Source of the DNA: Escherichia coli
GTDB lineage: Bacteria > Pseudomonadota > Gammaproteobacteria > Enterobacterales > Enterobacteriaceae
Length of the DNA: 64,000 nt
Reading direction: 5' to 3' (one strand)
Assembly (NCBI GenBank): GCA_025544715.1
Contig: GCA_025544715.1_4109.1
Shown here: piece by piece, positions 3,621 to 57,357 of the stretch
Layout of the letters: every line of letters starts with the position of its first letter
Position numbering within the stretch: position 1 is the first letter of the stretch
The notes under the pieces: model-generated
The model's database searches: none
The model's input: only the letters and a program-made list of their open reading frames with translations
What the model was told of the DNA's origin: nothing
Made by a program: the position numbers and the translations under genes

Positions 3621-3784
3621 TATGCATTTCTGCATTCAACAGGATTGTCATTACTACAACAAACATTATAGCACAAACTTTAAAGTTGTCTCACTATTTT
3701 TATAAAAATATTCATTAAGTACTTAAAATATTGCAAATAACTAATCCATAAATATTTTGATAACAAATAGTTTGGTGAGGAATT

Positions 3785-4276
3785 ATGAAAAAAAGATTAA
3801 AAGATAGTAAGGATGCTGCAAACTATCGAAACGAATTGCTAAAGAAACAAAATGGAATAGATCCTATAATTAACGAACCAATAACTAAACCAGTACTGGA
3901 TCACTACCACTATGGTAACCAACATTGTAGACAAGTTCTTCAAAATGAAGTCAATGCTTGGGAAGGAAAGGTGCAAAACAGCTTCAATCGATATATGAAG
4001 CACTTAACTGATAAACCATTATATGAGGTACTCAGAAATCTTGCTGATTACCTAGAGCGTAATAACAGCATTCCTGACGATGAACAAGTTATACATCACA
4101 CTGCACTAACTGTTGATGTTAATAAGTTTAAAAGGCTCCCAGCAACACAGCAAAACGCGATTCTGGAAGGGTTAGGAGTTGTCCCTGGTAGCAACACTAC
4201 TGCTCGTGTAAAGCAAGCTAGAAAGCTGATTAAAGACGGTAAATTAAATATGGTTGATATAAAAAAAGGGAGCTAA
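3785..4276 (+). CDS. HNH / endonuclease VII-like domain protein (zinc-binding cysteines not conserved)
   Basis: 163 aa ORF with GAGGAA RBS; segment LDHYHYGNQHCRQVLQNEVNAWEG aligns by eye to the endonuclease VII core (DHDH...RGLLCxxCNxxEG) with Cys positions replaced. Confidence 0.45.
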   Translation: MKKRLKDSKDAANYRNELLKKQNGIDPIINEPITKPVLDHYHYGNQHCRQVLQNEVNAWEGKVQNSFNRYMKHLTDKPLYEVLRNLADYLERNNSIPDDEQVIHHTALTVDVNKFKRLPATQQNAILEGLGVVPGSNTTARVKQARKLIKDGKLNMVDIKKGS

Positions 4277-4294: not shown

Positions 4295-6442
4295 TTAGAA
4301 AACATCATCAAGAGTTGCATATTCAACAGTACTGAAACCGTCTTCTTTAACAACTTTGAGGATTTTTTCAGTCTTAGAAAGTAACTCTTCTCTATGGGAA
4401 ATAGCATAAACGTTCTTACCACGTACAGCAGCCATATCTTGGAAGATAGACCACACACGTAGAACACCACTTGAGTCAAGACCTTGGTCAATCATCTCAT
4501 CAATGATAAGAATATTAATACTTTGGTATAATGACTCATATGTATCACGGAAAGCACAAGATAATGCGATGTTTACCCTTGTACGCTCACCTCTACTAAG
4601 CTGTTTATAGTCAAAGTACTGCCCACTCTTCTCAATTTCAACACTCAAATCATTCAAAAACACAACATTATGCTCAGAACCGCACATATCGATATAGTAC
4701 TGAAGTCGTGTATTCAAATATGAGATATTTTGCTCAATAATACGTTTACGGACATAAGAATCCTTGTTTAAAAGTAATTTAACCAAGAAATCTTGGTGAT
4801 TTGACATTTTATCAAGATTATTATAGTCGCTATAATCGATTGGTACTAAAGAATCAGTCTTCAGAGTATTAATTTGGCTAATAAATGTGTTAGTAGTCTT
4901 CAATTCACGATCTAATTGCTGTGATAATGAATTTACAGTCATTTCTAACTCTTTAACTTCATATTTGTTTAATGTATCTGGAACTTCCATTAGTTCATAT
5001 GAGTTAAGTTCATCATATGATGACATAAGTTCATTTGCATAGATGTTTATTGGTTCTTCTTCACTCTTTCTGACCAATTCTTGAAGCTTATGTTCATGCA
5101 TTTGTGCTTCCGAAAGTGTATTATAATATGTCACAGGTTTAGGTGGCATATCAAAAATCTCAATACTATCAATTTCTTGAAGTAATGTTTCAATTTCAGA
5201 AGAAGAACTATCAATTTTAGCTTGAAGATCATTAATAGTACTTTGGATTTTGTCTTTAATTGAAGAAGTATGTTCGTTATGTTCCAATTCAGACATACAA
5301 AGTGGACATTTGCTGTTTTCAACTGTTGATAATTTGTCAATTTCAGCATTAATTGAACATTCATATCCTTTTAAAGCTATTTTTAGTGAGTTTAGTTTTT
5401 GTTCTTTGAAACGTTTTTGGTTATTATTCTCTTTTAGAATACCCTCTAACTGTTTCCATATCTCCAACTCATTATGATTTTCCAATTCTGCACTAATATC
5501 AATAGTTTTTAGCTTATCAATGCTTAGATTTAATGCTCTTTTAGATCTTTCAAGTTCACGGTCATATGCATCAAATTTTAAAGCCAACTCTTGTACACGG
5601 CGTTCAATTTCACCACGCTTTGCGTTATGAATAAGAGCTTTCTCTTTTATGTCAGCAGCTTCATAGAGGTCATTAAAGTCTAAAGTTTTATATATATTCA
5701 ACTCTTCATTTAACTTAGATACTCTATTATTTTTATCAATTTCAAACTGGTTTGCCTGTTCTTGTAGTGCCTCAATACTTTTTTGAATACGTTCATTACT
5801 TGCAGCTACAGTTTCATTTTTGAACTTTTCTTGTTCGGCTAAACGTTTAGTATCCTTATACATCTCCTTTAGCATTTCAGCTTTTTCCGTCAACTGTGTT
5901 ATTCCAAGAAGTTCTTCTATCATATCACGTTGTTTTTGTGTGGATAAAGCTAAGAAAGGTTCAACGTTAGCATTCAGTACTACAATATGTTCAAATAATA
6001 ATTGAGATATACCAAGAATTTCATTCAAATCTTCTTGTGTGTCTTTCTTTTCTCCCCTTGATTCATCTTCAATTTTATTATCTTTCCCTAAAGTAACAAA
6101 ATTGAAATACGTGGGACTTCTCCCACGTTCAACCAAATATTGTACACCATCTTTTTCAAACTCTACAACTACTTCACAATTTTTTCCATTAGTTTTATTG
6201 ACTAGGTTAGGAATTTTAATATCGTTACCAATACTTTTACCAAATAATCCAAAAACTAATCCTTGAATAATAGCACTTTTCCCTACACCATTTCGACGTC
6301 CGGTACTGTCACCACCTTCAATAACTGCATCATTATTTTGACCCAGTACTAATGAAATGTCGGAACCATTCAAGTCAATTGATTGTGGTGCATTACCAAA
6401 TGAAAAGAAGTTCCTCATAGATATACGTGTAATGTTTAGCAT
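4295..6442 (-). CDS. Rad50/SbcC-like recombination ATPase (T4 gp46-like)
   Basis: 715 aa; Walker A RNGVGKSA, long coiled-coil middle with CPLC zinc-hook, signature LSRGE, Walker B LIIDE. Confidence 0.85.
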   Translation of the reverse strand: MLNITRISMRNFFSFGNAPQSIDLNGSDISLVLGQNNDAVIEGGDSTGRRNGVGKSAIIQGLVFGLFGKSIGNDIKIPNLVNKTNGKNCEVVVEFEKDGVQYLVERGRSPTYFNFVTLGKDNKIEDESRGEKKDTQEDLNEILGISQLLFEHIVVLNANVEPFLALSTQKQRDMIEELLGITQLTEKAEMLKEMYKDTKRLAEQEKFKNETVAASNERIQKSIEALQEQANQFEIDKNNRVSKLNEELNIYKTLDFNDLYEAADIKEKALIHNAKRGEIERRVQELALKFDAYDRELERSKRALNLSIDKLKTIDISAELENHNELEIWKQLEGILKENNNQKRFKEQKLNSLKIALKGYECSINAEIDKLSTVENSKCPLCMSELEHNEHTSSIKDKIQSTINDLQAKIDSSSSEIETLLQEIDSIEIFDMPPKPVTYYNTLSEAQMHEHKLQELVRKSEEEPINIYANELMSSYDELNSYELMEVPDTLNKYEVKELEMTVNSLSQQLDRELKTTNTFISQINTLKTDSLVPIDYSDYNNLDKMSNHQDFLVKLLLNKDSYVRKRIIEQNISYLNTRLQYYIDMCGSEHNVVFLNDLSVEIEKSGQYFDYKQLSRGERTRVNIALSCAFRDTYESLYQSINILIIDEMIDQGLDSSGVLRVWSIFQDMAAVRGKNVYAISHREELLSKTEKILKVVKEDGFSTVEYATLDDVF

Positions 6443-6450
6443 ATAGTCCC

Positions 6451-7500
6451 TTATAACGATCTGTAAATTTGGATTAGAAGATTTTTATCAAACATTGGTG
6501 AATCAATTTCCATAATTTGCTGCAAAACTATCTCATCAACTGATTCAGTACTTTCAAAACTAACACCATCTTCGATTAATTCTGAAATACTTTGCTTGCT
6601 TGTCACAACATTAAACTCTCTAATGTTATAAAGTTTAGTAAATGTATCACGAATAAAACTAATCTCATCAGTTGTTATTGATATATCAACTTGAACTTTT
6701 GATATTGTGTTATCTTGTAGATAATAGCTTGGATCAGTCAACAATTCAGAAAGTGTGAATGTTCTATATTTTGGTGCATTATCCCATGACTTGAAAATAG
6801 GTTCTTTGCCATGTTCAAGAATCATCACACCTCTTGCATCATCCCATGTATCGGAAAAATTATGTGGAAAACAATTACCAGTATAAACTACACGAGTTCC
6901 TTTTGAAGTTGTTTTTGACTGTCGTTTATGAAAATGTCCACTAAAAACATACTCACATCCACCAAAAGAACCTTCTGTTTCTTTTCCATGATCAGGCATT
7001 TCTACCATCTTGTTAAGTAAGTAACCTGGTAACTCTAAGTGACCAAAAACATACTTACTTTTTAGTTGAGGTAACAACTTATATTCATCTTCAATCATAA
7101 ATGGAATGAAAGTACAATCATCAAAGGTTGTAATTTCATTAATGAATTCTATATTTTCATAAACTTGAGCCATATTGATACTTGTTATATCACGTTTGTT
7201 TTTATGATACATATCATGGTTGCCTACTAAAAAATATACTTTTTCAAAATTATCATTTAATAATTGAAGAATTTGTAAACCATAGTTTAGTGTTTGAATA
7301 TTGATATTACTTCTATTATGAAAATAATCTCCCATAAAAACACAAACTTTGATATTATTTTTTTTAGCTACATCAATCATGAATTTAATGAAGTTTAAAC
7401 AATCTTCATTGTGTTGCTTGCTGTTATTCTTTAAACCTAAGTGAATATCAGTGAATGTAATTGCTTTATCAAACAGAGCCATCTTCATTTTTCCTTTCAA
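6451..7500 (-). CDS. Mre11/SbcD-like nuclease (T4 gp47-like)
   Basis: 349 aa; phosphoesterase motifs DIHLG, GDYFH, GNHD, GHLE, GHFH; directly upstream of the Rad50-like gene. Confidence 0.85.
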   Translation of the reverse strand: MKGKMKMALFDKAITFTDIHLGLKNNSKQHNEDCLNFIKFMIDVAKKNNIKVCVFMGDYFHNRSNINIQTLNYGLQILQLLNDNFEKVYFLVGNHDMYHKNKRDITSINMAQVYENIEFINEITTFDDCTFIPFMIEDEYKLLPQLKSKYVFGHLELPGYLLNKMVEMPDHGKETEGSFGGCEYVFSGHFHKRQSKTTSKGTRVVYTGNCFPHNFSDTWDDARGVMILEHGKEPIFKSWDNAPKYRTFTLSELLTDPSYYLQDNTISKVQVDISITTDEISFIRDTFTKLYNIREFNVVTSKQSISELIEDGVSFESTESVDEIVLQQIMEIDSPMFDKNLLIQIYRSL

Positions 7501-34255: not shown

Positions 34256-34720
34256 ATGAATGAAGCGGTTGGTGCTATATTTTTATCAAAAAGTACTGGA
34301 CATATGATGTTAAACTTGCGTTCTGAAAGAAGTACCTATTCTAACAACTGGGCATTTGTTGGTGGAAAGCTTGAACATAACGAAACACCATTACAAGGTC
34401 TGATGAGAGAAATTAAAGAAGAGTTGGGCAACTCAATACCTAACATTATTGATATTATACCGTTTGATGTATTTTGTACAAAAAATGGTAAATTTAAATA
34501 TTATTCATTTGTTATTGTAGTTGAGAATGAATTTGTACCGACTTTAAATCATGAAAGCTCTGGTTATGCTTGGGTTAGAATTGGTTCTTGGCCTAAACCA
34601 TTACACCCTGGTGCTAAAAATACTTTACTTAACACAAACTTAATGAAAGATTTTTACTCACTATGGGAAAGTATACGTGAAGGTACACAGTTTGTCAACA
34701 GTTTACCATATAGATATTAA
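34256..34720 (+). CDS. Nudix hydrolase
   Basis: 154 aa; exact Nudix box GGKLEHNETPLQGLMREIKEELG (Gx5Ex7REUxEExGU); AGGAGG RBS. Confidence 0.8.
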   Translation: MNEAVGAIFLSKSTGHMMLNLRSERSTYSNNWAFVGGKLEHNETPLQGLMREIKEELGNSIPNIIDIIPFDVFCTKNGKFKYYSFVIVVENEFVPTLNHESSGYAWVRIGSWPKPLHPGAKNTLLNTNLMKDFYSLWESIREGTQFVNSLPYRY

Positions 34721-49992: not shown

Positions 49993-51957
49993 ATGAGTAT
50001 AAATCGAATTAGAGGTGATGGTGGTGTAATTATCGATAGTAAATCTTTTTTAGAGTTACCGAAAGCACCATCAAAAGAAACCGCTGATGTAATAAGATCA
50101 GGGATGATTAGATACAATAAGGAATGGAAATCATTTGAAGGTGTTCTGGATTTTGAAGATGGTACTATGGCATATCGCCGCTTTGCAAACTTAGATGCAA
50201 ATGGTAAACTTCTTACTTCCCAATTACCAGATTCAGTAACTAGTGGTTTACAGTTTGTTGGTACATACAATCCTATCCCAGATGATATTGATCCACCTTT
50301 AGCACAAACACCACTACCAGCACCAGCAGCATCACTAAATGGTGATTATTATGTTGTTCGTGGTATTATGGATGCAGCACAAGCACACTTTGAAGCAAAT
50401 AACCCACAAACAAGTCCGGTTACATTTACACCTACGAACCCAACTGGTCAAGGTAATTGGATTGAAATTTTATATTATATTGACTCCAATCCAAATATAT
50501 CTGGTGCTAAACTTGTAACATACGCTTTTGCAAGAATTATTACTGCATCTATTCCTAGTACTGGTCATGAAGGTCTTGAAAATTTAGCAACTGATGCTGA
50601 CTTAACTAAACCATTTGCTTCTGGCGTTCCAATGAACCAGACCGCACTATCAGATGGTGATTGGATCATTATAACTGAAGATAAAAACATACGTCTACGC
50701 CAGTCAAGAACAAGCATTTCTGCTGCTTCTGTATTATATGACAATACAGTAATGATTGCAAACCATCGTCAATTTAGAACGAACGCAGGAACCGTACAAA
50801 CATCCATAGATAACGTTGTGATTGAATGTTTGCGTAGAACTGGCGATTCCATGTATAATGATGGAACAAGCGGCTCAGGGCGTTTTGGTGTGGTCTATGG
50901 TAGTGCAGCAGCACCAGCATTGACATTTAATAACAATCCATTTGATCCAACCAATAACCCAGGTAATGATCCTACCAAATGGTCAGACGCTAATACTGGT
51001 ATATTTCATCCAGCAGATGATGCAATTGGTTTCAGTACTGCTGGAACTGAACGTATTAGAATTAATAATTCAACATTAACATTATACCAAACAACTTCAA
51101 CCCCAGCATCAACCCCAGTACTAAGATTTGATAATGCAACCAATACTAATGTTGGACTAAGTGCTAGTAGTAATATTATTTCATTTAGTTCAATGAATAA
51201 AGTACAAGTTGAATTTAAAAATGGTGAAAGTGCGTTTCATGGTAATATTGTGGTTGATGGTACAAGCACATTGACTGGTGATACATCAGCTAGTAATATC
51301 ACTGCTAGTGGTAATTTGAACATTCAAGGTAATACCATATTAGGCGATGCTGCATCAGATACAATTACAGTTAATGGAGTTAGTACGTTTACAGCAAACA
51401 CCAATTTCAATGGAACAACTAATAAATTTAAAAATATAAATCTATTAGCTAATGGTATAATTACATTAGAAAGTACTACTAACCAAAGTACAATCCAATT
51501 AGTTAGTTCTGATTTAAAACTATCAATGGGTAATTATGCTGATGTAAGTATCTATGATAATGGAACTATAAGAGCACGTTTTAATAGATATGGTATCCAA
51601 TTACCAGTACTAGCTACTATTGATAACTCTGTTGGCGTTGATGGTATGATTGCATACTCCAATACCGAGCGTACTTCAATGCAAAAAGTTCAAGGTCAAT
51701 GGGTTCCAATTGGTTCAGGTTCAGTGAGAACCGATGCTTTTACCATTTCATCTTGGGTATTAAGTGGTAACTACTACACCCTTACTGTAACAGCCTCAAA
51801 CATCGTCACAGCAGAGATACAGGAACAGGTTAGTCCTGGTGTCTATACTCGTGTTGAGGTCGATAGCGTTACGTTTAACGGCACTAACGTAGTGTTTAGT
51901 ATACCTTCAACTCCTGATGTACGTTTCGACGGAAGAACATTGGTAACAATTAGATAA
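49993..51957 (+). CDS. Tail fibre protein (654 aa)
   Basis: Last gene of the plus-strand fibre block; Thr/Ser/Asn/Gly-rich C-terminal half; strong bidirectional terminator downstream. Confidence 0.5.
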   Translation: MSINRIRGDGGVIIDSKSFLELPKAPSKETADVIRSGMIRYNKEWKSFEGVLDFEDGTMAYRRFANLDANGKLLTSQLPDSVTSGLQFVGTYNPIPDDIDPPLAQTPLPAPAASLNGDYYVVRGIMDAAQAHFEANNPQTSPVTFTPTNPTGQGNWIEILYYIDSNPNISGAKLVTYAFARIITASIPSTGHEGLENLATDADLTKPFASGVPMNQTALSDGDWIIITEDKNIRLRQSRTSISAASVLYDNTVMIANHRQFRTNAGTVQTSIDNVVIECLRRTGDSMYNDGTSGSGRFGVVYGSAAAPALTFNNNPFDPTNNPGNDPTKWSDANTGIFHPADDAIGFSTAGTERIRINNSTLTLYQTTSTPASTPVLRFDNATNTNVGLSASSNIISFSSMNKVQVEFKNGESAFHGNIVVDGTSTLTGDTSASNITASGNLNIQGNTILGDAASDTITVNGVSTFTANTNFNGTTNKFKNINLLANGIITLESTTNQSTIQLVSSDLKLSMGNYADVSIYDNGTIRARFNRYGIQLPVLATIDNSVGVDGMIAYSNTERTSMQKVQGQWVPIGSGSVRTDAFTISSWVLSGNYYTLTVTASNIVTAEIQEQVSPGVYTRVEVDSVTFNGTNVVFSIPSTPDVRFDGRTLVTIR

Positions 51958-51995
51958 TAAAAAAGGGAGAACATTAGTTCTCCCTTTTCGTTTAT
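51958..51995. terminator. Bidirectional terminator between the last fibre gene and thyA
   Basis: A-run then GGGAGAAC-atta-GTTCTCCC then TTTTCGTTT. Confidence 0.85.
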
Positions 51996-52921
51996 ACAGC
52001 CATAGGTGCTTTAATTGTTGGCATTGGGTTGTAATTCACTAATTTGAAAGAATCCATTGTGAAATCTTCAATATTAGTAATTGTAGGATCAAGCCACAAT
52101 TCAGGTAATTCACGAGGTTTTCGCTGTAGTTGTTCTTTTACTTGTTCAACGTGGTTTTTATAAATGTGACAATCACCACCATTCCAAATAAATTCACCAA
52201 CATCTAAACCAGTAATTTGTGCAATCATATGAGTTAGTAGTGAGTAACTACTGATATTAAATGGAACTCCCAAAAATAGATCAGCGGAGCGTTGATGTAG
52301 AATGCAGCTTAGTTTCCCTTGTACTACACAAAATTGCACAAAGCTATGACAAGGTGGCAACGTCATATCATCAAGCTCACCAACGTTCCAGGCACTTAGA
52401 ATGTGGCGACGACCATATGGATCGGAATGTATACCTTTGATTAGTTCTTGTAATTGGTCAGTTGTACGTTTCATAACAACACCATGTGAACCAGTATAAT
52501 CGATAACTTTGTATCCTTTATCTTTTAATTCTTGAATTTCTTCAGTACTGGAACTAAATTTATAATCTTCCCATTCACGCCATTGCTTACCATACACTGG
52601 ACCCAATTCACCATCAGTATAACCAAGAGCAACGCCTTGATTTAGGTAATTATCTGTCCAAATTGTTTTCTTTTCAGTATCACGAGTTCCATGCAAAATT
52701 TCACAAAGGCGACGCTCATCATGGGAACCTTCAATAAACCATAGTAATTCTGAAGTCATTGCTTTCCAAGCTAGACGTTTTGTCGTCACTGCTGGGAAAC
52801 CATCGTTAAGGTCGAAACGCATTTGTTGACCGATAAGTTTGATTGTCCCAACACCAGTACGGTCAACGCTTTCTACGCCTTCATCTAGAATTTTTTGATA
52901 TAGTTCTTGTAGTTGTTTCAT
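51992..52921 (-). CDS. thyA: Thymidylate synthase (ThyA family)
   Basis: 309 aa; catalytic LPPCH, HQRSADLFLGVPFNISSYSLL, GGDCHIYKNH, C-terminal IKAPMAV; Asn in the PFNI motif implies a uracil-type substrate. Confidence 0.9.
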   Translation of the reverse strand: MKQLQELYQKILDEGVESVDRTGVGTIKLIGQQMRFDLNDGFPAVTTKRLAWKAMTSELLWFIEGSHDERRLCEILHGTRDTEKKTIWTDNYLNQGVALGYTDGELGPVYGKQWREWEDYKFSSSTEEIQELKDKGYKVIDYTGSHGVVMKRTTDQLQELIKGIHSDPYGRRHILSAWNVGELDDMTLPPCHSFVQFCVVQGKLSCILHQRSADLFLGVPFNISSYSLLTHMIAQITGLDVGEFIWNGGDCHIYKNHVEQVKEQLQRKPRELPELWLDPTITNIEDFTMDSFKLVNYNPMPTIKAPMAV

Positions 52922-53514
52922 TATACTTCCTTGAAAAATGTAATAAAATGTTCCATATGTTTTTCTGTGGCATTGCGTGAACCAATACCAGTCCAGTTTC
53001 CATGTGGAGGTGGAACCACGAATGATTGTTGGAACTCTTTCAGTACTGTATCGAAATAAAATACTGAACGTGAATTCATATCATAACAATAAATTTCAGG
53101 ATTTTCAACTGAATCCATATACATCTGTACTGCCCATGCAGTACCACCACTTACCTTAGTTGGTGATGTGATATTTGCAATACAATATATTCTTTCTGTA
53201 TTAAGTATCTGATAACTATTCCTTGCAAGTAAGTTGTAAACATAAGAACCAGGCTTCGGTACTTTTCGCTGTAACGAGTAACATGCAATGTTTAGTTGAT
53301 TTAATATAGAAATATCAGATAGAATATTGGATGGTATTTCTAATATAGTACTTTCATCTACACTATGCTCATGACCTTTGAATGAAAAATTAATAACTTC
53401 AAATCCATTATTTTTTGCATAGATAGAAAAAAGGCGGTCAGCACCTGCTGCCCCGCCACTAAAACATACATTAGATAAACCTTTTATTGCTTCATCTAAT
53501 TCATTCTTTTTCAT
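52921..53514 (-). CDS. Hypothetical Rossmann-like protein with SGGAAGAD loop (SLOG/DprA/YpsA-like?)
   Basis: 197 aa; stop overlaps the thyA start (TAATG); Gly-rich loop FSGGAAGADRLFS resembles the DprA/YpsA/LOG nucleotide-binding loop. Family assignment is a guess. Confidence 0.5.
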   Translation of the reverse strand: MKKNELDEAIKGLSNVCFSGGAAGADRLFSIYAKNNGFEVINFSFKGHEHSVDESTILEIPSNILSDISILNQLNIACYSLQRKVPKPGSYVYNLLARNSYQILNTERIYCIANITSPTKVSGGTAWAVQMYMDSVENPEIYCYDMNSRSVFYFDTVLKEFQQSFVVPPPHGNWTGIGSRNATEKHMEHFITFFKEV

Positions 53515-53517
53515 ATT

Positions 53518-54174
53518 TTATTTTGCTTTACGTTCTGCAAATAGTTGTTTTACTTTCTCAATAGCTTTAGTCTGTGAAATACCTTCTGGAATTTCTAGAT
53601 AAATTGTTTTACTATCTTTCGGTTGTTCAACAACTTGTGTTTGTGGACGCAAACTTGGCTCTAAATTATATGCACGTTCATAATGTTCTTTAGCCAGTTT
53701 TTCATATTTTTGTGCATCAGTGAGAAGTTGTTCTACAATAGTAGCTTCTTCTACTTTAGTGTCAGCTTCTTGTGGATTGAATGGGTTAAAGTCTTTTACT
53801 TTACCATCTTCTTGTACTTTTGCTTGATTTTCATCTAATGCTTTGTTTAGAACATCAAGAGAAATTTTATTATTACCACCAGTGTGCATATCAATGTCAC
53901 AAGTACGAACGCGACGTAGATGCTGCATATTGTGTAGAACATCTAGCATTTTGCGTCCATCGAGATAACCAATTTTATGCATTACTTCCCACAAATCAAT
54001 ATTAGATTGACCATGACCCATAACAATATCAGTTACTGCGTGAACATATGCTTCTGGTAGTGAATCACGATAAACAATAAGGCAGTGTTCAGGATCATCT
54101 GGTAGTGAACGCCAAACAACAAAAACACGAGAACCTGTATTACGCATTACACCAACATGACGAATAGCTGCCAT
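53518..54174 (-). CDS. Hypothetical protein (218 aa)
   Basis: Tightly packed in the same minus-strand operon. Confidence 0.5.
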   Translation of the reverse strand: MAAIRHVGVMRNTGSRVFVVWRSLPDDPEHCLIVYRDSLPEAYVHAVTDIVMGHGQSNIDLWEVMHKIGYLDGRKMLDVLHNMQHLRRVRTCDIDMHTGGNNKISLDVLNKALDENQAKVQEDGKVKDFNPFNPQEADTKVEEATIVEQLLTDAQKYEKLAKEHYERAYNLEPSLRPQTQVVEQPKDSKTIYLEIPEGISQTKAIEKVKQLFAERKAK

Positions 54175-54176
54175 AA

Positions 54177-54437
54177 TTATTCTCCTTTATCTTCTTGAGT
54201 TTCACTATCTTGTGATTCAGCTTCTTCTTTAGCTGCATCTTCTTGTGCTTTAATATCTTCAAGAGCTACATTTGCAAAAGAAACAAATTTAGATACAACT
54301 GGAGCAACCTCAACAAGTTCTTCAACTTTAAAGGTGTTTCGTGCAACAGCAGCTTCCATAATTTTTGCAGCATTGATTAGGTCTAGAAGGGTTAGTTGAA
54401 TTTGATTATTTTCTTGTTCCATTTTAATACTCTCCAT
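54177..54437 (-). CDS. Small acidic hypothetical protein (86 aa; may start at internal Met, 54422)
   Basis: Second ATG has a GGAGAG RBS; sigma70-like promoter immediately upstream. Confidence 0.4.
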   Translation of the reverse strand: MESIKMEQENNQIQLTLLDLINAAKIMEAAVARNTFKVEELVEVAPVVSKFVSFANVALEDIKAQEDAAKEEAESQDSETQEDKGE

Positions 54438-54445
54438 GTATATTG

Positions 54446-54473
54446 GTACATTAACTATTATATCATATTTTTA
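54446..54473 (-). promoter_or_regulatory. Sigma70-like promoter (-35 GGGACA, 16 nt, -10 TATAAT), same family
   Basis: Minus-strand reading: GGGACA-acttataaaaatatga-TATAAT; just upstream of the 86 aa gene and downstream of a minus-strand terminator. Confidence 0.5.
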
Positions 54474-54486
54474 TAAGTTGTCCCAC

Positions 54487-54520
54487 TTATAAAAAGAAGA
54501 GAACGGAAAATTCCGTTCTC
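54487..54520 (-). terminator. Rho-independent terminator (minus strand) after the vWA gene
   Basis: Minus-strand reading: GAGAACGG-aatttt-CCGTTCTC followed by TTCTTTTTATAA. Confidence 0.7.
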
Positions 54521-54532
54521 ATTATTTAGTAC

Positions 54533-55957
54533 TTAACTACGTTGACGCTTTTTATCAGCTTCATATTCGTAGTGTACAGTCTCACCAAATGGTGCAACTT
54601 TATTTGGGTTACTGTGAATCACGAACAGTGTTTTACAGTAGTTTGGATCACCCCACGACTGCCACGGTTCACCATCTGTAAACATTACAAGCTGTTTAGG
54701 CTTGTAGTTGTCGTTCTTCATATGAACCCATACTGCTTCAAAGTCAGTACCACCACCACCTTTTACTGGATATTCCAGAATCTTACGTTCTTCGCCAGTT
54801 TTGTAATCCTTTACAGTATAAACTTCAGTATCAAAAGTCATGATACGAATCTTAAACTGTTTGAATTGTTTAGTGATACCTAGAACTTCACTAATGAAAT
54901 CACGAAGCATATCTTCAGAAATAGATCCAGAAGCATCTAGTGCAATCGCAATATCAATGTCATCATCTGGTTTCATCCCTGGGTAAATTGGATTACCATA
55001 GAATGAACCATTAGAACCAAAACCTGCACCCCAAGAACGACGATTCGGATTTTGATATGTTGCATCAGACTTCAACCAACTACGAAGTGTGCGTTGAAGT
55101 TTTGAACGCCAGTCAATCTTTGGTTCTTTAAAGTTGTTAATCATACGAGCGATTTCTGCTGGTGTACCACCTGCACGAGCAGCATTCATCATTGCTGTTT
55201 TGAAATCATCCATGTAATCACGTTTTTGTTTCTCACTTGAACCACCCTCTTGACCTTCTTGTGGAACGTCATGCTGGTCAATTGTAGTACCTTTTGGTTT
55301 ACCCTTACCATCTTTAATATCGCCAAAAGTACCGCGATTTTTACCTTCACCTTCGCTACCACCACTTTGTGGTTGACCTTCACCTTCACCATCTTCTTTT
55401 TGTTCTTCTTCTTCAAGAAGAATGTAAATCTCTTCTGCGGTCATACCTTCATATTTTTTATCATACAACCATGAACTTTGGATTTTTCCAATTTTCTCAC
55501 GAACGATGATTTGGTTAATGGCATAATCCGCTGCACGGTTATAACGTTGTGGATCACGCATACCACGACGAAGGAAGTGATCGTAAGCACAGTGTAGAAT
55601 TTCATGACAAATTACAGCAATAAGGTTTTCATCAGTCAAACCTTCAGTCATTTCTTTTAATTGTTCGTCTGTAACTTCAGGGTGCTTTTCACGAATAGCT
55701 TCTTCATATTCTTTCTTTTTAGATGGGTCTTGAATGCCCATTACAAATTCTACGTTGTAGAATAGATGTTTACCATCCACTGCTAGAGTACGACACCATG
55801 TATTATTAGGAACTGGACGTAAACGTGAAGCGAGTACGCCAAAGAATGGTGCAGTTAACATCAAAGATGTACGAGCCAGAACCAGACGATCTTGACATTC
55901 TTTCTGAAGTGCAGGAGATACTTCATTGAATATGGAAGTAGATTTGTTATCTGACAT
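54533..55957 (-). CDS. vWA-domain protein with N-terminal zincin-like metallopeptidase motif (DUF2201-vWA type)
   Basis: 474 aa; HEILH (HExxH) in N-terminal half; vWA MIDAS motif DASGS in C-terminal half; acidic Gly-rich linker. Confidence 0.75.
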   Translation of the reverse strand: MSDNKSTSIFNEVSPALQKECQDRLVLARTSLMLTAPFFGVLASRLRPVPNNTWCRTLAVDGKHLFYNVEFVMGIQDPSKKKEYEEAIREKHPEVTDEQLKEMTEGLTDENLIAVICHEILHCAYDHFLRRGMRDPQRYNRAADYAINQIIVREKIGKIQSSWLYDKKYEGMTAEEIYILLEEEEQKEDGEGEGQPQSGGSEGEGKNRGTFGDIKDGKGKPKGTTIDQHDVPQEGQEGGSSEKQKRDYMDDFKTAMMNAARAGGTPAEIARMINNFKEPKIDWRSKLQRTLRSWLKSDATYQNPNRRSWGAGFGSNGSFYGNPIYPGMKPDDDIDIAIALDASGSISEDMLRDFISEVLGITKQFKQFKIRIMTFDTEVYTVKDYKTGEERKILEYPVKGGGGTDFEAVWVHMKNDNYKPKQLVMFTDGEPWQSWGDPNYCKTLFVIHSNPNKVAPFGETVHYEYEADKKRQRS

Positions 55958-56031
55958 GTATATTTCCTCGTTTAGTTAAGATAAAAGAAGGATACCATTA
56001 GGCATCCTTCTTGTCAACAACTCTTTGTTAA

Positions 56032-57357
56032 TTAGCCAAGAGAGCGTGCTTTACGTACAAGTTCAGAGTACTTAGCGATGAAATCTTTAAACGCTGGTAC
56101 ATCTTTAATGGAAATCGCAACCTTATGAAGCGTGATGGTACGAATTGCCAGTACTGCCAGTTCTGCTTGAGTTGCAGAGAAGTTATGGTCTAGGAAGGTG
56201 ATGAAGTTGTTACACAGTTTACCCCATTCTTCCACTGGTAGACGTTGTTCTTGCTTCTCATTGAACAGGTCGATAATTTTATAAACCAAGTTCAGAGTGA
56301 TAAAGTAGTTCGCAGAAATATCCAGCGTTGCGTCGATTTCTTTGATTTCACCAGACAGAATAGACATAGTATCTGGTAGTTTAGCAACGTTCTCAACGTA
56401 CTCAATGTATTCAGTCGCAACACCTTCACCAACACGACCAGCAATCATTGCACGGAACACTTCTTTATCAATTGTCTTATTTTTCTTGAGATCTTCGTAG
56501 CGTGCTACTGCTTCCCATGAACGTGGAGAAGTACCACCGCTGTGAGAAGGATCTTGTGGGCTAAGTGTGTTAAAGTACTTAGAACCAGTGTTGTTGATGA
56601 ACGCAACAGTTGCTGGGTTCAAACGTTTTGCAATCGCATAATCGTTAATCCAATCTTGATGATAAGGAATCATCTCAATGTGAGTCATACGGTCACGCAG
56701 TGGTGTAGCAAGAGAGAACGTTACACCGCCATCAGTTTCACGGTTACCTGCTGCAAGAATCAGTGCAGTCTTAGGTAGCTTCATCTCACCAACACAACGG
56801 TCGAGGATTAGCTGATAAGACGCTGCCTGAACAATAGGCATTGCAGAGTTAATTTCGTCAAACAGAATAACACCTTTCCAATCTTCGGACAATTTCAGTA
56901 CTTTAGGTGCAGCCCATACTACCGCTGTTTCAGCTACATAATCTTTTGCTTCGGCAAGCTCAGATTCTTTCAGAAGAGAACCGTCAGTTTTACGGAAAAG
57001 CTTCTCTGGAACTGGAATACCGCGAAGGTCACTTGGTTCAATTTGAGACAAACGGAAATCGATAAAGTTAGTATCTTGGTCGATTAGTTTTGCTTCAAAT
57101 GCAGCCAGTTCACGGCGTAGCTGATCAGCATTTTCAGGGTCAGCTTCGATTTGTTGTTTCATGAACTCGATTTTAGCTACGTTATCTTTACGCAGTGGGT
57201 AATTTTCATCAGCATATTGACGAGCGATAGCAGACTTACCGATACCTGGGCTACCCCAAATCATCAGGCTATCTTGAATCATGTCAGCCAGTGCCATTGC
57301 TTCTTTAGCTTTCTTTGGAGTCAGTTTAACGTTCAGGATATCGTTTTGAGTAGTCAT
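56032..57357 (-). CDS. MoxR/CbbQ/CobS-like AAA+ ATPase (AAA_5 type)
   Basis: 441 aa; Walker A GSPGIGKS, Walker B ILFDEINS; AGGAAA RBS; immediately upstream of the vWA gene. Confidence 0.8.
   Translation of the reverse strand: MTTQNDILNVKLTPKKAKEAMALADMIQDSLMIWGSPGIGKSAIARQYADENYPLRKDNVAKIEFMKQQIEADPENADQLRRELAAFEAKLIDQDTNFIDFRLSQIEPSDLRGIPVPEKLFRKTDGSLLKESELAEAKDYVAETAVVWAAPKVLKLSEDWKGVILFDEINSAMPIVQAASYQLILDRCVGEMKLPKTALILAAGNRETDGGVTFSLATPLRDRMTHIEMIPYHQDWINDYAIAKRLNPATVAFINNTGSKYFNTLSPQDPSHSGGTSPRSWEAVARYEDLKKNKTIDKEVFRAMIAGRVGEGVATEYIEYVENVAKLPDTMSILSGEIKEIDATLDISANYFITLNLVYKIIDLFNEKQEQRLPVEEWGKLCNNFITFLDHNFSATQAELAVLAIRTITLHKVAISIKDVPAFKDFIAKYSELVRKARSLG

Follow-up and report, generated by a model that had tools for sequence, protein, structure and literature searches.

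A four-gene cassette of a Rak2-like jumbo coliphage encodes a predicted canonical thymidylate synthase and an orphan SLOG-fold protein

We analyzed a four-gene cassette in a 64,000-nucleotide stretch of phage DNA, here called the window. Overall, the cassette combines what appears to be an ordinary thymidylate synthase (ThyA) with a member of a modestly interesting orphan SLOG family. In our best explanation, it would be an early-type operon of a Rak2-like jumbo phage, driven by the host RNA polymerase, in which three unrelated things share one promoter. These would be a canonical ThyA, a SLOG protein acting in nucleotide metabolism and a separate two-gene module. We favor this reading of the operon as a whole with moderate confidence.

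The window belongs to an Asteriusvirus (121Q/PBECO4/G17-like, Rak2-like) jumbo coliphage, with 98.5% nucleotide identity to 121Q, G17 and PBECO4. The cassette is located on the minus strand and is composed of four tightly packed open reading frames, in the order 86 aa, 218 aa, 197 aa and thyA. The stop codon of the 197 aa frame and the start codon of thyA have base 52921 in common in GTATAATGAAA (TAATG). The remaining junctions are gaps of 3 and 2 nt. The four frames, the TAATG overlap and an SGGAAGAD loop in the 197 aa protein had been described in a sequence-only reading of this DNA, and all of them are confirmed here.

The cassette is bounded by a terminator and a sigma70-like extended -10 promoter on one side and by a strong terminator on the other. 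The upstream terminator-like hairpin (54499..54520, minus strand) has a 9-bp palindromic stem, scored on both strands, and closes the preceding ATPase-vWA unit. A terminator is annotated here in G17, and an equivalent hairpin is kept in Rak2-like relatives. The promoter (54457..54484, minus strand) contains GGGACA, a 16-nt spacer, TATAAT and the TG of an extended -10, with 10 of 12 matches. Across the region, promoter-like sites show no overall enrichment, with 12 found where 11.5 are expected. This one is more than a chance match, because the same arrangement of the terminator, the -35-like hexamer and TGnTATAAT recurs ahead of the homologous cassettes of RaK2, CBB and 13 metagenomic (IMG/VR) Rak2-like loci. 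At the other end, an intrinsic terminator with a 13-bp stem and a T-run (51960..51989, minus strand), also annotated in G17, ends the cassette. It sits between thyA and a convergent structural gene ending at 51957. The terminator/promoter layout is kept across Rak2-like genera. Judged from these signals, the four genes very probably form a single sigma70-driven transcription unit, in agreement with the previous claim that they are co-transcribed behind an early promoter. The early timing is suggested by the promoter type.

The first ATG of the 86 aa frame, at 54437, falls within a conserved leader, ACATGGAG(T/A)GTAT. The GGAG in this leader is likely a Shine-Dalgarno sequence. The true start of the first gene is probably the ATG at 54422, which gives an 81 aa protein and matches the annotation of phage G17.

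The last gene (51992..52921, minus strand) encodes a 309 aa ThyA, a long form with an insert at the small-domain position of the L. casei enzyme. Pfam and NCBIfam models bear out that it belongs to the thymidylate synthase (TS) family. It scores 338.3 bits against the Pfam TS model PF00303 (cut-off 24.3, E 3e-101), and exceeds the NCBIfam equivalog cut-offs with 340.8 bits for NF002497 (327) and 324.8 bits for TIGR03284 (108.35). The top match in the PDB is E. coli ThyA (E 1e-79). The protein is 52.3% identical to E. coli ThyA, compared to 19.5% for SPO1 gp29, 22.2% for the SenALZ1 ViI-like enzyme and 25.1% for T4 gp42. Alignment indicated that Cys146, Asn177, the phosphate-binding residues R21/R126/R127/R166/S167, and E58, Y94, H147, D169, H207 and Y209 (E. 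coli numbering) are retained. In TS, hydride transfer is allowed by I79/W80, L143, F176 and the C-terminal KAPxA[IV]; these folate-closing elements are all found in the alignment, the last as KAPMAV. Asn177, which specifies dUMP, is the dUMP/dCMP switch (PMC8670742). Wherever hydroxymethylases differ from TS, at L143, H147, Q165, R127, I79/W80 and the C-terminal KAPMAV, the phage protein has the TS residue. It is predicted to be an ordinary canonical thymidylate synthase, because it passes the equivalog cut-offs, shows 52% rather than 19-25% identity and carries TS residues at the discriminating positions. It had been thought that sequence cannot tell a dUMP hydroxymethylase from a TS, but here these scores, identities and residues separate the two. 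ThyA would convert dUMP to dTMP using methylene-tetrahydrofolate, with the release of dihydrofolate. It would thereby supply thymidylate to a genome of 33-38% G+C that replicates in a host of about 51% G+C.

These observations bear directly on an alternative raised in the sequence-only reading, in which the ThyA homologue hydroxymethylates dUMP and thereby initiates thymidine hypermodification, and the SLOG protein and the unknowns are nucleotide- or DNA-modifying partners. Such pathways do begin with TS-family enzymes in SPO1, ViI, M6 and PhiW-14 (PMC8989533), and the cassette holds three proteins with no assigned activity. However, the ThyA passes the TS equivalog cut-offs, is at most 25% identical to hydroxymethylases compared to 52% to E. 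coli ThyA, and has the TS-state residues L143, H147, Q165, R127, W80 and KAPMAV. DHFR recycles the dihydrofolate made by TS, whereas hydroxymethylases leave folate unoxidized. The related phage RaK2 is reported to encode a DHFR (gp148), along with dCMP deaminase, thymidine kinase and dNMP kinase (PMC3622015). Neither DHFR nor dNMP kinase is found in the 64-kb window. RaK2 DNA is reportedly cut by certain enzymes only, but the authors of that study ascribe the restriction pattern to methyltransferases/methylation (PMC3622015). In addition, the linkage between SLOG and ThyA is limited to one lineage, the Rak2-like phages.

Companions of hypermodification include 5-hmU DNA kinase (P-loop), aGPT-Pplase/amino-acid:DNA transferase, PLP or radical-SAM tailoring enzymes and dTTPase/dTMPase (PMC8989533). 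Our search for them covered the cassette and its flanks in a genome of about 350 kb, and none was found with Pfam, PHROGs and NCBIfam among the cassette proteins and two upstream genes. With a ThyA that is canonical by sequence and no signature gene (5-hmU DNA kinase, aGPT-Pplase) in the cassette, the hypermodification proposal is already largely refuted, and we consider it extremely improbable. The operon appears to be no thymidine-hypermodification pathway. Because its thymidylate synthase seems ordinary, the locus gives no ground to expect hypermodified thymidine in 121Q-like phages. This is a useful negative, with relevance to restriction-enzyme choice, sequencing chemistry and phage-therapy characterization.

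The first two genes of the cassette encode proteins described previously as unknowns, and this description is borne out. The 86 aa frame (54177..54437, minus strand; probably 81 aa) encodes a small acidic helical protein with a pI of 4.2 that belongs to phrog_13789. The 218 aa protein (53518..54174, minus strand) contains an N-terminal SH3/KOW-like barrel (residues ~1-120), an acidic linker and C-terminal helices. A BFVD fold search with its model found uncharacterized viral proteins only. In Atu_ph07, PA5oct and Phosso, the three isolate lineages from which the wider gene context of the 218 aa family is taken, the gene immediately upstream of the 218 aa homologue encodes a homologue of the 86 aa protein. 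The pair is a separate conserved two-gene module, which in other jumbo phages occurs with neither ThyA nor SLOG, and would be the third component of the operon. The unknowns had been suggested to be ThyA partners. Their distribution does not support this: adjacency of SLOG to ThyA is restricted to Rak2-like phages, and the occurrence of the 81/218 aa pair is independent of SLOG and ThyA alike.

In Atu_ph07, the 218 aa homologue is followed by a ThyX gene at a distance of about 1 kb. We considered a tie between the 218 aa protein and thymidylate synthesis and rejected it. We regard the proximity as a coincidence, since Phosso and PA5oct have no TS nearby.

The 197 aa protein (52921..53514, minus strand) is predicted to have a SLOG fold, apparently circularly permuted and closest to cpYpsA/YAcAr. 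Its AF2 model has a pLDDT of 97.3 and shows a three-layer α/β Rossmannoid fold that matches solved SLOG members. In structural comparisons 3imk is the best match by a wide margin, and the ThsA SLOG domain is far below 3imk, DprA and LOG. The predicted structure and these matches support the previous assignment of the protein as a DprA/YpsA/LOG-like Rossmannoid. At the sequence level, the 197 aa and 218 aa proteins had only chance-level matches in the PDB, both singly and as a profile, and the 86 aa, 218 aa and 197 aa proteins had no match in NCBIfam or PADLOC. Four motifs are found in the 197 aa protein: SGGAAGAD (19-26), LLARNxYQ (95-102), GGTAWAVQ (123-130) and GIGSR (176-180). Among 58 diverse family sequences, S19, G20, A22, G24, D26, R98, Q102, G123, T125, A128, G176, G178 and R180 are invariant. 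The loops S19-G20-x-A22-x-G24-x-D26 and G123-(G124)-T125-x-x-A128 are invariant or nearly so.

The protein consists of the SLOG domain alone and belongs to a large SLOG family specific to phages, phrog_768, which comprises at least 483 clusters at 90% identity. All members found in this analysis are on contigs that are viral or virus-like. No Pfam domain is found in the extensions of the longer relatives (255-307 aa). The domain also occurs inside giant proteins, the virion RNA polymerase of the N4-like phage Pylas and a protein of the crAss-like phage cr113_1, with all motifs kept. Literature on cpYpsA, DUF2493 in phage and SLOG with gcADPR contained no experimental characterization of this family. 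DUF2493 is only mentioned there, as a domain at the C-terminus of the ICP1 helicase HelB and in the annotation of an N4-like phage.

The gene neighborhood of the family was sampled at 79 IMG/VR loci, representing 34 lineages at 60% SLOG identity; 65 of these loci are non-Rak2. ThyA neighbors SLOG in 14 loci, all of them Rak2-like and equal to two of the 34 lineages. Unbiased clustering identified the T4 gp1-type dNMP kinase as the top neighbor family (36 loci, 15 lineages), at position -1 in 32 loci. These kinases pass the Pfam DNMK cut-off. At the non-Rak2 loci, the kinase is directly upstream of SLOG in 31 of 65 and within 6 kb in 44, and no kinase is near SLOG in 18. The kinase-SLOG pair stays together where the sheath and gp13 genes that flank it are rearranged, and its order is swapped in two loci, L031 and L054. 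Further contexts include a dCMP deaminase with NadM-Nudix and NAMPT, an adenylosuccinate-synthetase-like (PurA-like) gene and NAD synthetase (NadE). In Cr30 and L046, SLOG follows the gp47/gp46 recombination nuclease genes.

The sequence-only reading had suggested that the neighbors of ThyA are nucleotide-processing partners. A nucleotide-processing role is plausible for the SLOG protein, but its recurrent partner is the dNMP kinase, not ThyA. The adjacency to the kinase could largely reflect inherited synteny in related T4-like lineages rather than functional coupling. The finding of no dNMP kinase in the window of this phage also speaks against such coupling.

A role in nucleotide metabolism is suggested because the T4 gp1-type dNMP kinase recurs next to SLOG, and ThyA, dCMP deaminase, PurA-like and NAD-salvage genes are found elsewhere. 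The SLOG protein may bind a nucleoside-monophosphate-type ligand; the glycine-rich loops of its pocket are invariant. It would act in phage (deoxy)nucleotide metabolism, either through N-glycosidase-like catalysis or by binding the ligand as a partner or regulator of other proteins. We infer this ligand and activity, and likewise any physical contact of the protein with the dNMP kinase or ThyA. A more specific proposal, which we make tentatively and regard as possible rather than probable, is that phrog_768 SLOG proteins are an unrecognized component of phage deoxynucleotide metabolism. Their partner might be the gp1-type dNMP kinase, joined by ThyA in Rak2-like phages, and they might act as a dNMP/NMP N-glycosidase, a base-exchange enzyme or a ligand-sensing regulatory subunit that reshapes or polices the pyrimidine dNMP pool. 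In some N4-like and crAss-like phages the same activity might be delivered at injection inside giant virion proteins.

The embedding in giant proteins fits immediate-early counter-defense or nucleic-acid binding at least as well as a metabolic role. In the first of these alternatives, the SLOG protein is a counter-defense factor that either cleaves NAD+/ADP-ribose-derived immune signals such as cADPR isomers or binds them in the manner of a sponge or sensor, and its adjacency to ThyA is incidental. Iyer et al., 2022 predicted this role for viral YpsA-like SLOG domains, which are enriched in jumbo phages (PMC9503650). The presence of the domain in the Pylas virion RNA polymerase and the cr113_1 giant protein is consistent with action at the moment of infection, and the promoter of the cassette is of the early type. 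NAD-salvage genes (NadM-Nudix, NAMPT, NadE) are nearby in three contexts, which fits the published ADPr hypothesis (PMC9503650) and speaks against the metabolic reading. However, no Macro or NADAR domain is fused or adjacent to SLOG in about 90 loci examined, and the dominant neighbor is the dNMP kinase rather than an ADPr-processing gene. The protein has no PADLOC match, and the ThsA SLOG domain is structurally far less similar to it than 3imk, DprA and LOG. We consider the counter-defense role unlikely.

The second alternative follows the PHROG-derived annotation, 'DprA-like DNA recombination-mediator protein' for phrog_768. The SLOG protein would then be an ssDNA-binding recombination mediator that loads or assists the phage recombinase. 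The position of the gene after gp47/gp46 in Cr30 and L046 agrees with this, although it is seen in only two of the 65 loci. Iyer et al., 2021 raised the possibility that the DprA/SLOG proteins of jumbo phages serve as additional ssDNA binders (PMC7824862). A domain that binds ssDNA would also be a good fit for a virion RNA polymerase, which reads promoters in single-stranded form. However, the Pfam DprA model is matched only weakly, by three of the 58 members. The protein is a bare Rossmannoid domain that lacks the flanking domains of DprA, it is mildly acidic (pI 5.95; family median 6.8), and its best structural match by a wide margin, 3imk, is not a DprA. This role is in our judgment quite improbable.

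Taken as a dNMP-pool enzyme or regulator, a counter-defense factor against ADPr signals or an ssDNA binder, the SLOG protein is thus subject to three mutually exclusive hypotheses. The family is large and structurally confident and has no Pfam model, and its label as a DprA-like recombination mediator in public records rests on thin grounds. This side result has more potential than the ThyA question. The family shows a recurrent, rearrangement-resistant pairing with the dNMP kinase and is also embedded in giant proteins.

The closest structural match of the 197 aa protein, 3imk, is a 'putative molybdenum carrier protein' from Syntrophus aciditrophicus, which we take to be a member of the Pfam cpYpsA family, a circularly permuted YpsA-like SLOG. 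The cpYpsA model is not matched in the family at E<=0.05. The 197 aa protein is below the gathering score of YAcAr (PF10686, formerly DUF2493), with 20.2 compared to 28.2 bits and over residues 6-44 only; sub-threshold YAcAr matches occur in 21 of the 58 family members. Unlike 3imk and YAcAr, it has an additional helical insert (residues ~60-105) that bears the invariant R98 and Q102. To our knowledge, no biochemical function is established for 3imk or YAcAr.

DprA/Smf and the Shosta antitoxin ShosA differ from the 197 aa protein in strand order. The GSR strand is N-terminal in DprA, whereas it is C-terminal in the 197 aa protein. The phage protein also lacks the SAM or winged-helix flanking domains of DprA, and is not basic. 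The Pfam DprA model (DNA_processg_A) does not match it, and the matches in three of 58 relatives have E-values of 0.006 or weaker. The LOG/PpnN phosphoribohydrolases contain a catalytic Glu in PGGxGTxxE. We presume, from its position in the fold, that this motif corresponds to the S122-G-G-T-A-W-A-V-Q130 segment, which ends in Gln130. Position 130 is Q in most family members and E in a few, and this speaks against hydrolysis by the LOG mechanism in most of them. At the sequence level, the 197 aa protein matches no LOG family.

The hydroxymethylases SPO1 gp29, ViI-like gp and T4 gp42 have the same superfamily fold as the phage ThyA. They share with it the nucleophile Cys146 and equivalents of Glu58, Tyr94, Arg166, Asp169, His207 and Tyr209. 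However, they carry D at L143, T/N at H147 and M/N at Q165, where the phage protein has the TS state. The two dUMP hydroxymethylases have Q at R127 and a gap at I79/W80, whereas T4 gp42 keeps both. The KAPxAV C-terminus is absent in all three, and their C-termini are unrelated.

The E. coli and L. casei ThyA (EC 2.1.1.45) and T4 Td belong to the same family as the phage ThyA. R21, E58, W80, Y94, R126/127, L143, C146, H147, Q165-R166-S167, D169, N177, H207, Y209 and the C-terminal KAPxA[VI] are common to the phage protein and known TS. The DHFR gene adjoins the TS gene in T4 frd-td, whereas the thyA of the cassette is not beside a DHFR gene. Compared to E. coli ThyA, the phage protein is about 45 residues longer, in the region of the L. 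casei-type insert. Its alignment with the L. casei enzyme of 316 aa runs over the full length, with the insert included.

The cassette is most probably an early-type operon made up of three elements: an ordinary ThyA, an orphan SLOG protein and an unrelated pair of genes that form a module. The region (51500-55000) matches Escherichia phages 121Q, G17, PBECO4 and Sharanji at 98.5% identity over its full length in a nucleotide search. These phages belong to the genus Asteriusvirus, ~350 kb 'Rak2-like' jumbo myoviruses. The ORF listing returned four minus-strand ORFs at coordinates identical to those of the sequence-only reading: an 86 aa ORF (54177-54437), a 218 aa ORF (53518-54174), the 197 aa SLOG ORF (52921-53514) and thyA (51992-52921). 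The TAATG overlap between the last two was confirmed, and the remaining junctions are gaps of 3 and 2 nt. The Asteriusvirus records label one ORF thymidylate synthase, another 'hypothetical', 'DprA-like' or 'DUF2493', and two as hypothetical proteins. There, tail-fibre and structural genes border the cassette at one end, and genes for an AAA ATPase and a DUF2201/vWA protein at the other.

In the window, the ATPase (N4 gp24-similar) and the DUF2201 metallopeptidase-like/vWA protein (N4 gp25-similar) form a separate unit immediately upstream (54533-57357, minus strand), which closes with its own terminator. PHROG-derived annotations label the DUF2201/vWA protein 'HNH endonuclease', for which its Pfam domains give no support. 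At 34256-34720 on the plus strand, amid tail and structural genes and directly after a T4 gp15-like gene, lies the gene for a 154 aa Nudix hydrolase whose Nudix box (GKLEHNETPLQGLMREIKEELG) is intact; the 121Q annotation calls it MutT/NUDIX.

The gene order in RaK2, CBB/GAP32 and other Rak2-like genera is small protein, 218 aa protein, an optional ~100 aa ORF, SLOG, an optional ~110 aa ORF and ThyA. Since an ORF can lie between SLOG and ThyA in these genera, the overlap is specific to Asteriusvirus, and the cassette is plastic at exactly this junction. The extra ORFs, none of which is found in Asteriusvirus, are located at 3709-4014 in comparison locus L002 and at 3706-4014 and 4595-4924 in L003. 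The ~100 aa ORF precedes the SLOG gene, and the ~110 aa ORF, which is coiled-coil-like, separates SLOG from thyA in CBB/GAP32.

Upstream of the cassette, a terminator-like hairpin (54520..54499) is followed by the putative promoter GGGACA-16-TATAAT with a TG extended -10 (54484..54457), both on the minus strand. Downstream, thyA is followed by a hairpin of 13 bp and a T-run (51989..51960, minus strand). Promoter-like matches are not enriched across the region (12 versus 11.5 expected). In RaK2, CBB and 13 metagenomic Rak2-like loci, the homologous cassette is preceded by a terminator, a -35-like hexamer and TGnTATAAT arranged in this order, despite divergence of the surrounding sequence. On this basis the predicted element is accepted as a real host-type promoter. 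The leader ACATGGAG(T/A)GTAT 5' of the small ORF (54422-54450, minus strand) is conserved across genera, with equivalents in loci L002, L003 and L018-L037. It is a short inverted repeat with GGAG in the loop. The GGAG is likely the ribosome-binding site of the small ORF. The conserved leader suggests that the small acidic protein probably begins at 54422, giving 81 aa and matching the G17 annotation, rather than at 54437.

The small acidic protein and the SH3/KOW-like 218 aa protein (window 53518-54437, minus strand) form a pair that also occurs at comparison loci L098 (4269-5208), L099 (4181-5241) and L100 (4240-5127). The 218 aa family comprises 731 clusters at 50% identity (E<=0.001), with no Pfam match, no named relative and no annotation anywhere. 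In Atu_ph07, PA5oct and Phosso, a counterpart of the small acidic protein is encoded directly before each 218 aa homologue, and the 218 aa homologues are distant from the SLOG genes of those phages (95 kb in Atu_ph07). A family HMM found SLOG adjacency only in Rak2-like loci. The 81/218 aa pair is therefore an independent conserved module and no partner of ThyA, contrary to the earlier suggestion; its conservation across very different jumbo phages does not depend on SLOG or ThyA.

The 197 aa protein has a SLOG fold and belongs to a family without a curated model. The earlier structural guess was a good one, and the SGGAAGAD loop it relied on is at residues 19-26. The search found 106 relatives in databases and at least 483 clusters at 90% identity with a profile. 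Almost all are 180-300 aa without a Pfam domain, and many are on 100-580 kb contigs. The invariant positions in 58 diverse members form four motifs: SGGAxGAD (19-26), LLxRNxxQ (95-102), GGTAWA (123-128) and GIGSR (176-180). An AlphaFold2 model from the family alignment has a pLDDT of 97.3 and a pTM of 0.92. DprA has its G-S-R strand ahead of the SGxAxGID loop. In the 197 aa protein, by contrast, SGGAxGAD follows the first strand, and the final unit is made of the GIGSR strand and helix. This motif order suggests a circularly permuted fold, in keeping with the much better order-dependent structural match to 3imk, a member of the 'circularly permuted YpsA' family.

Three assignments were rejected. 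YAcAr membership falls under the Pfam threshold (20.2 versus 28.2 bits), and LOG identity conflicts with Gln130 at the position of the catalytic Glu. PHROGs assigns the protein to phrog_768, 'DprA-like DNA recombination-mediator protein'; DprA identity was dismissed because the protein has no match to the Pfam DprA model, a single domain and a pI of 5.95. A 'DprA-like' ssDNA binder is the least supported of the functional readings. The literature search found no experimental work on this SLOG family.

The three nearest genes upstream and downstream of SLOG were clustered without prior assumptions, with lineages defined at 60% SLOG identity. Outside the Rak2-like lineage, ThyA is near SLOG in none of 65 IMG/VR loci, and ThyX in one. 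The commonest neighbor is a ~214 aa family at position -1 (36 loci, 15/34 lineages), five representatives of which exceed the Pfam gathering score for T4 gp1-type dNMP kinase. In tblastn searches, 31 of the 65 loci have the kinase gene immediately upstream in the same orientation, and 44 have it no more than 6 kb away. The pair is kept when the flanking tail-sheath and gp13 genes switch side and strand, and also in L031 and L054, where its order is swapped. Such pairs, often overlapping and beside a tail-sheath gene, are found in many T4-like and Atu_ph07-like phages (IMG/VR and Logan loci L004, L010, L013, L014 and L031-L090). Other surroundings include dCMP deaminase with NadM-Nudix and NAMPT, an adenylosuccinate-synthetase-like gene, NAD synthetase with dNMP kinase in Atu_ph07, and gp47/gp46 nuclease genes in Cr30.

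SLOG domains with all four motifs are also embedded in giant proteins: the ~3800 aa virion RNA polymerase of N4-like Klebsiella phage Pylas (L006, ~6001-6492), and a >4300 aa protein of crAss-like phage cr113_1, near its C-terminus (L007, ~5001-5477). The cr113_1 record calls the entire protein 'DprA-like'. Across the 846 nt examined (L007, 4941-5786), its gene contains six in-frame TAG codons, and it stops at TAA, consistent with TAG reassignment in cr113_1.

The strongest contextual signal is the recurrent association with enzymes of the dCMP->dUMP->dTMP->dTDP route. With moderate confidence, this gene context suggests that the protein acts in (deoxy)nucleotide metabolism by binding or cleaving a ligand of the nucleoside-monophosphate type. 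However, kinase adjacency may partly reflect inherited synteny, the kinase is absent at 18 loci, and Gln usually replaces the LOG-type catalytic Glu. Viral YpsA-clade SLOG domains were instead predicted to process or sense ADP-ribose-derived immune signals (PMC9503650). NAD-salvage neighbors and the copies within giant phage proteins fit this prediction, but no Macro or NADAR association was seen among the loci examined. The nucleotide-metabolism role is favored. The SLOG family itself merits follow-up, for its dNMP-kinase linkage and its presence inside giant proteins such as the Pylas polymerase.

ThyA had been proposed as a possible dUMP hydroxymethylase initiating thymidine hypermodification, with sequence considered unable to tell. 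It matches Pfam Thymidylat_synt (E 3e-101) and exceeds the curated cut-offs of two NCBIfam equivalogs for thymidylate synthase (NF002497, 340.8 versus 327; TIGR03284, 324.8 versus 108). Among solved structures, its best matches are to E. coli ThyA (E 1e-79) and to the L. casei enzyme (316 aa). The latter aligns end to end, indicating that the ~45 extra residues are the known L. casei-type insert. Phages that hypermodify thymidine are recognisable by genes for a 5-hmU DNA kinase and aGPT-Pplase, which usually lie close to the hydroxymethylase gene (PMC8989533); Pfam, PHROGs and NCBIfam found no such genes within or beside the cassette. The authors describing the related phage RaK2 listed DHFR, dCMP deaminase, thymidine kinase and dNMP kinase, and ascribed its restriction pattern to methylation (PMC3622015). 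DHFR was not found in the 64-kb window.

An alignment compared ThyA with its E. coli counterpart, with the orthologues from RaK2 and CBB, and with three hydroxymethylases, either characterised or annotated, taken from their genomes: T4 gp42, SPO1 gp29 and the SenALZ1 ViI-like enzyme. ThyA shares 52% identity with the E. coli enzyme and 19-25% with the hydroxymethylases. It retains every catalytic residue, including Asn177, which sets dUMP over dCMP specificity (PMC8670742). Scores, identity and discriminating residues thus do separate the two activities here, and ThyA is predicted to be a canonical thymidylate synthase. These features and the lack of marker genes in or beside the cassette argue against the proposed pathway. 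Wherever all three hydroxymethylases differ from thymidylate synthases, ThyA has the synthase residue: L143, H147, Q165 and the C-terminal KAPxA[VI]. The hydroxymethylases have D at 143, T or N at 147 and M or N at 165, and lack the C-terminal motif. In the two dUMP hydroxymethylases, R127 is also replaced by Q and I79/W80 falls in a gap; T4 gp42 keeps R127 and I79/W80.
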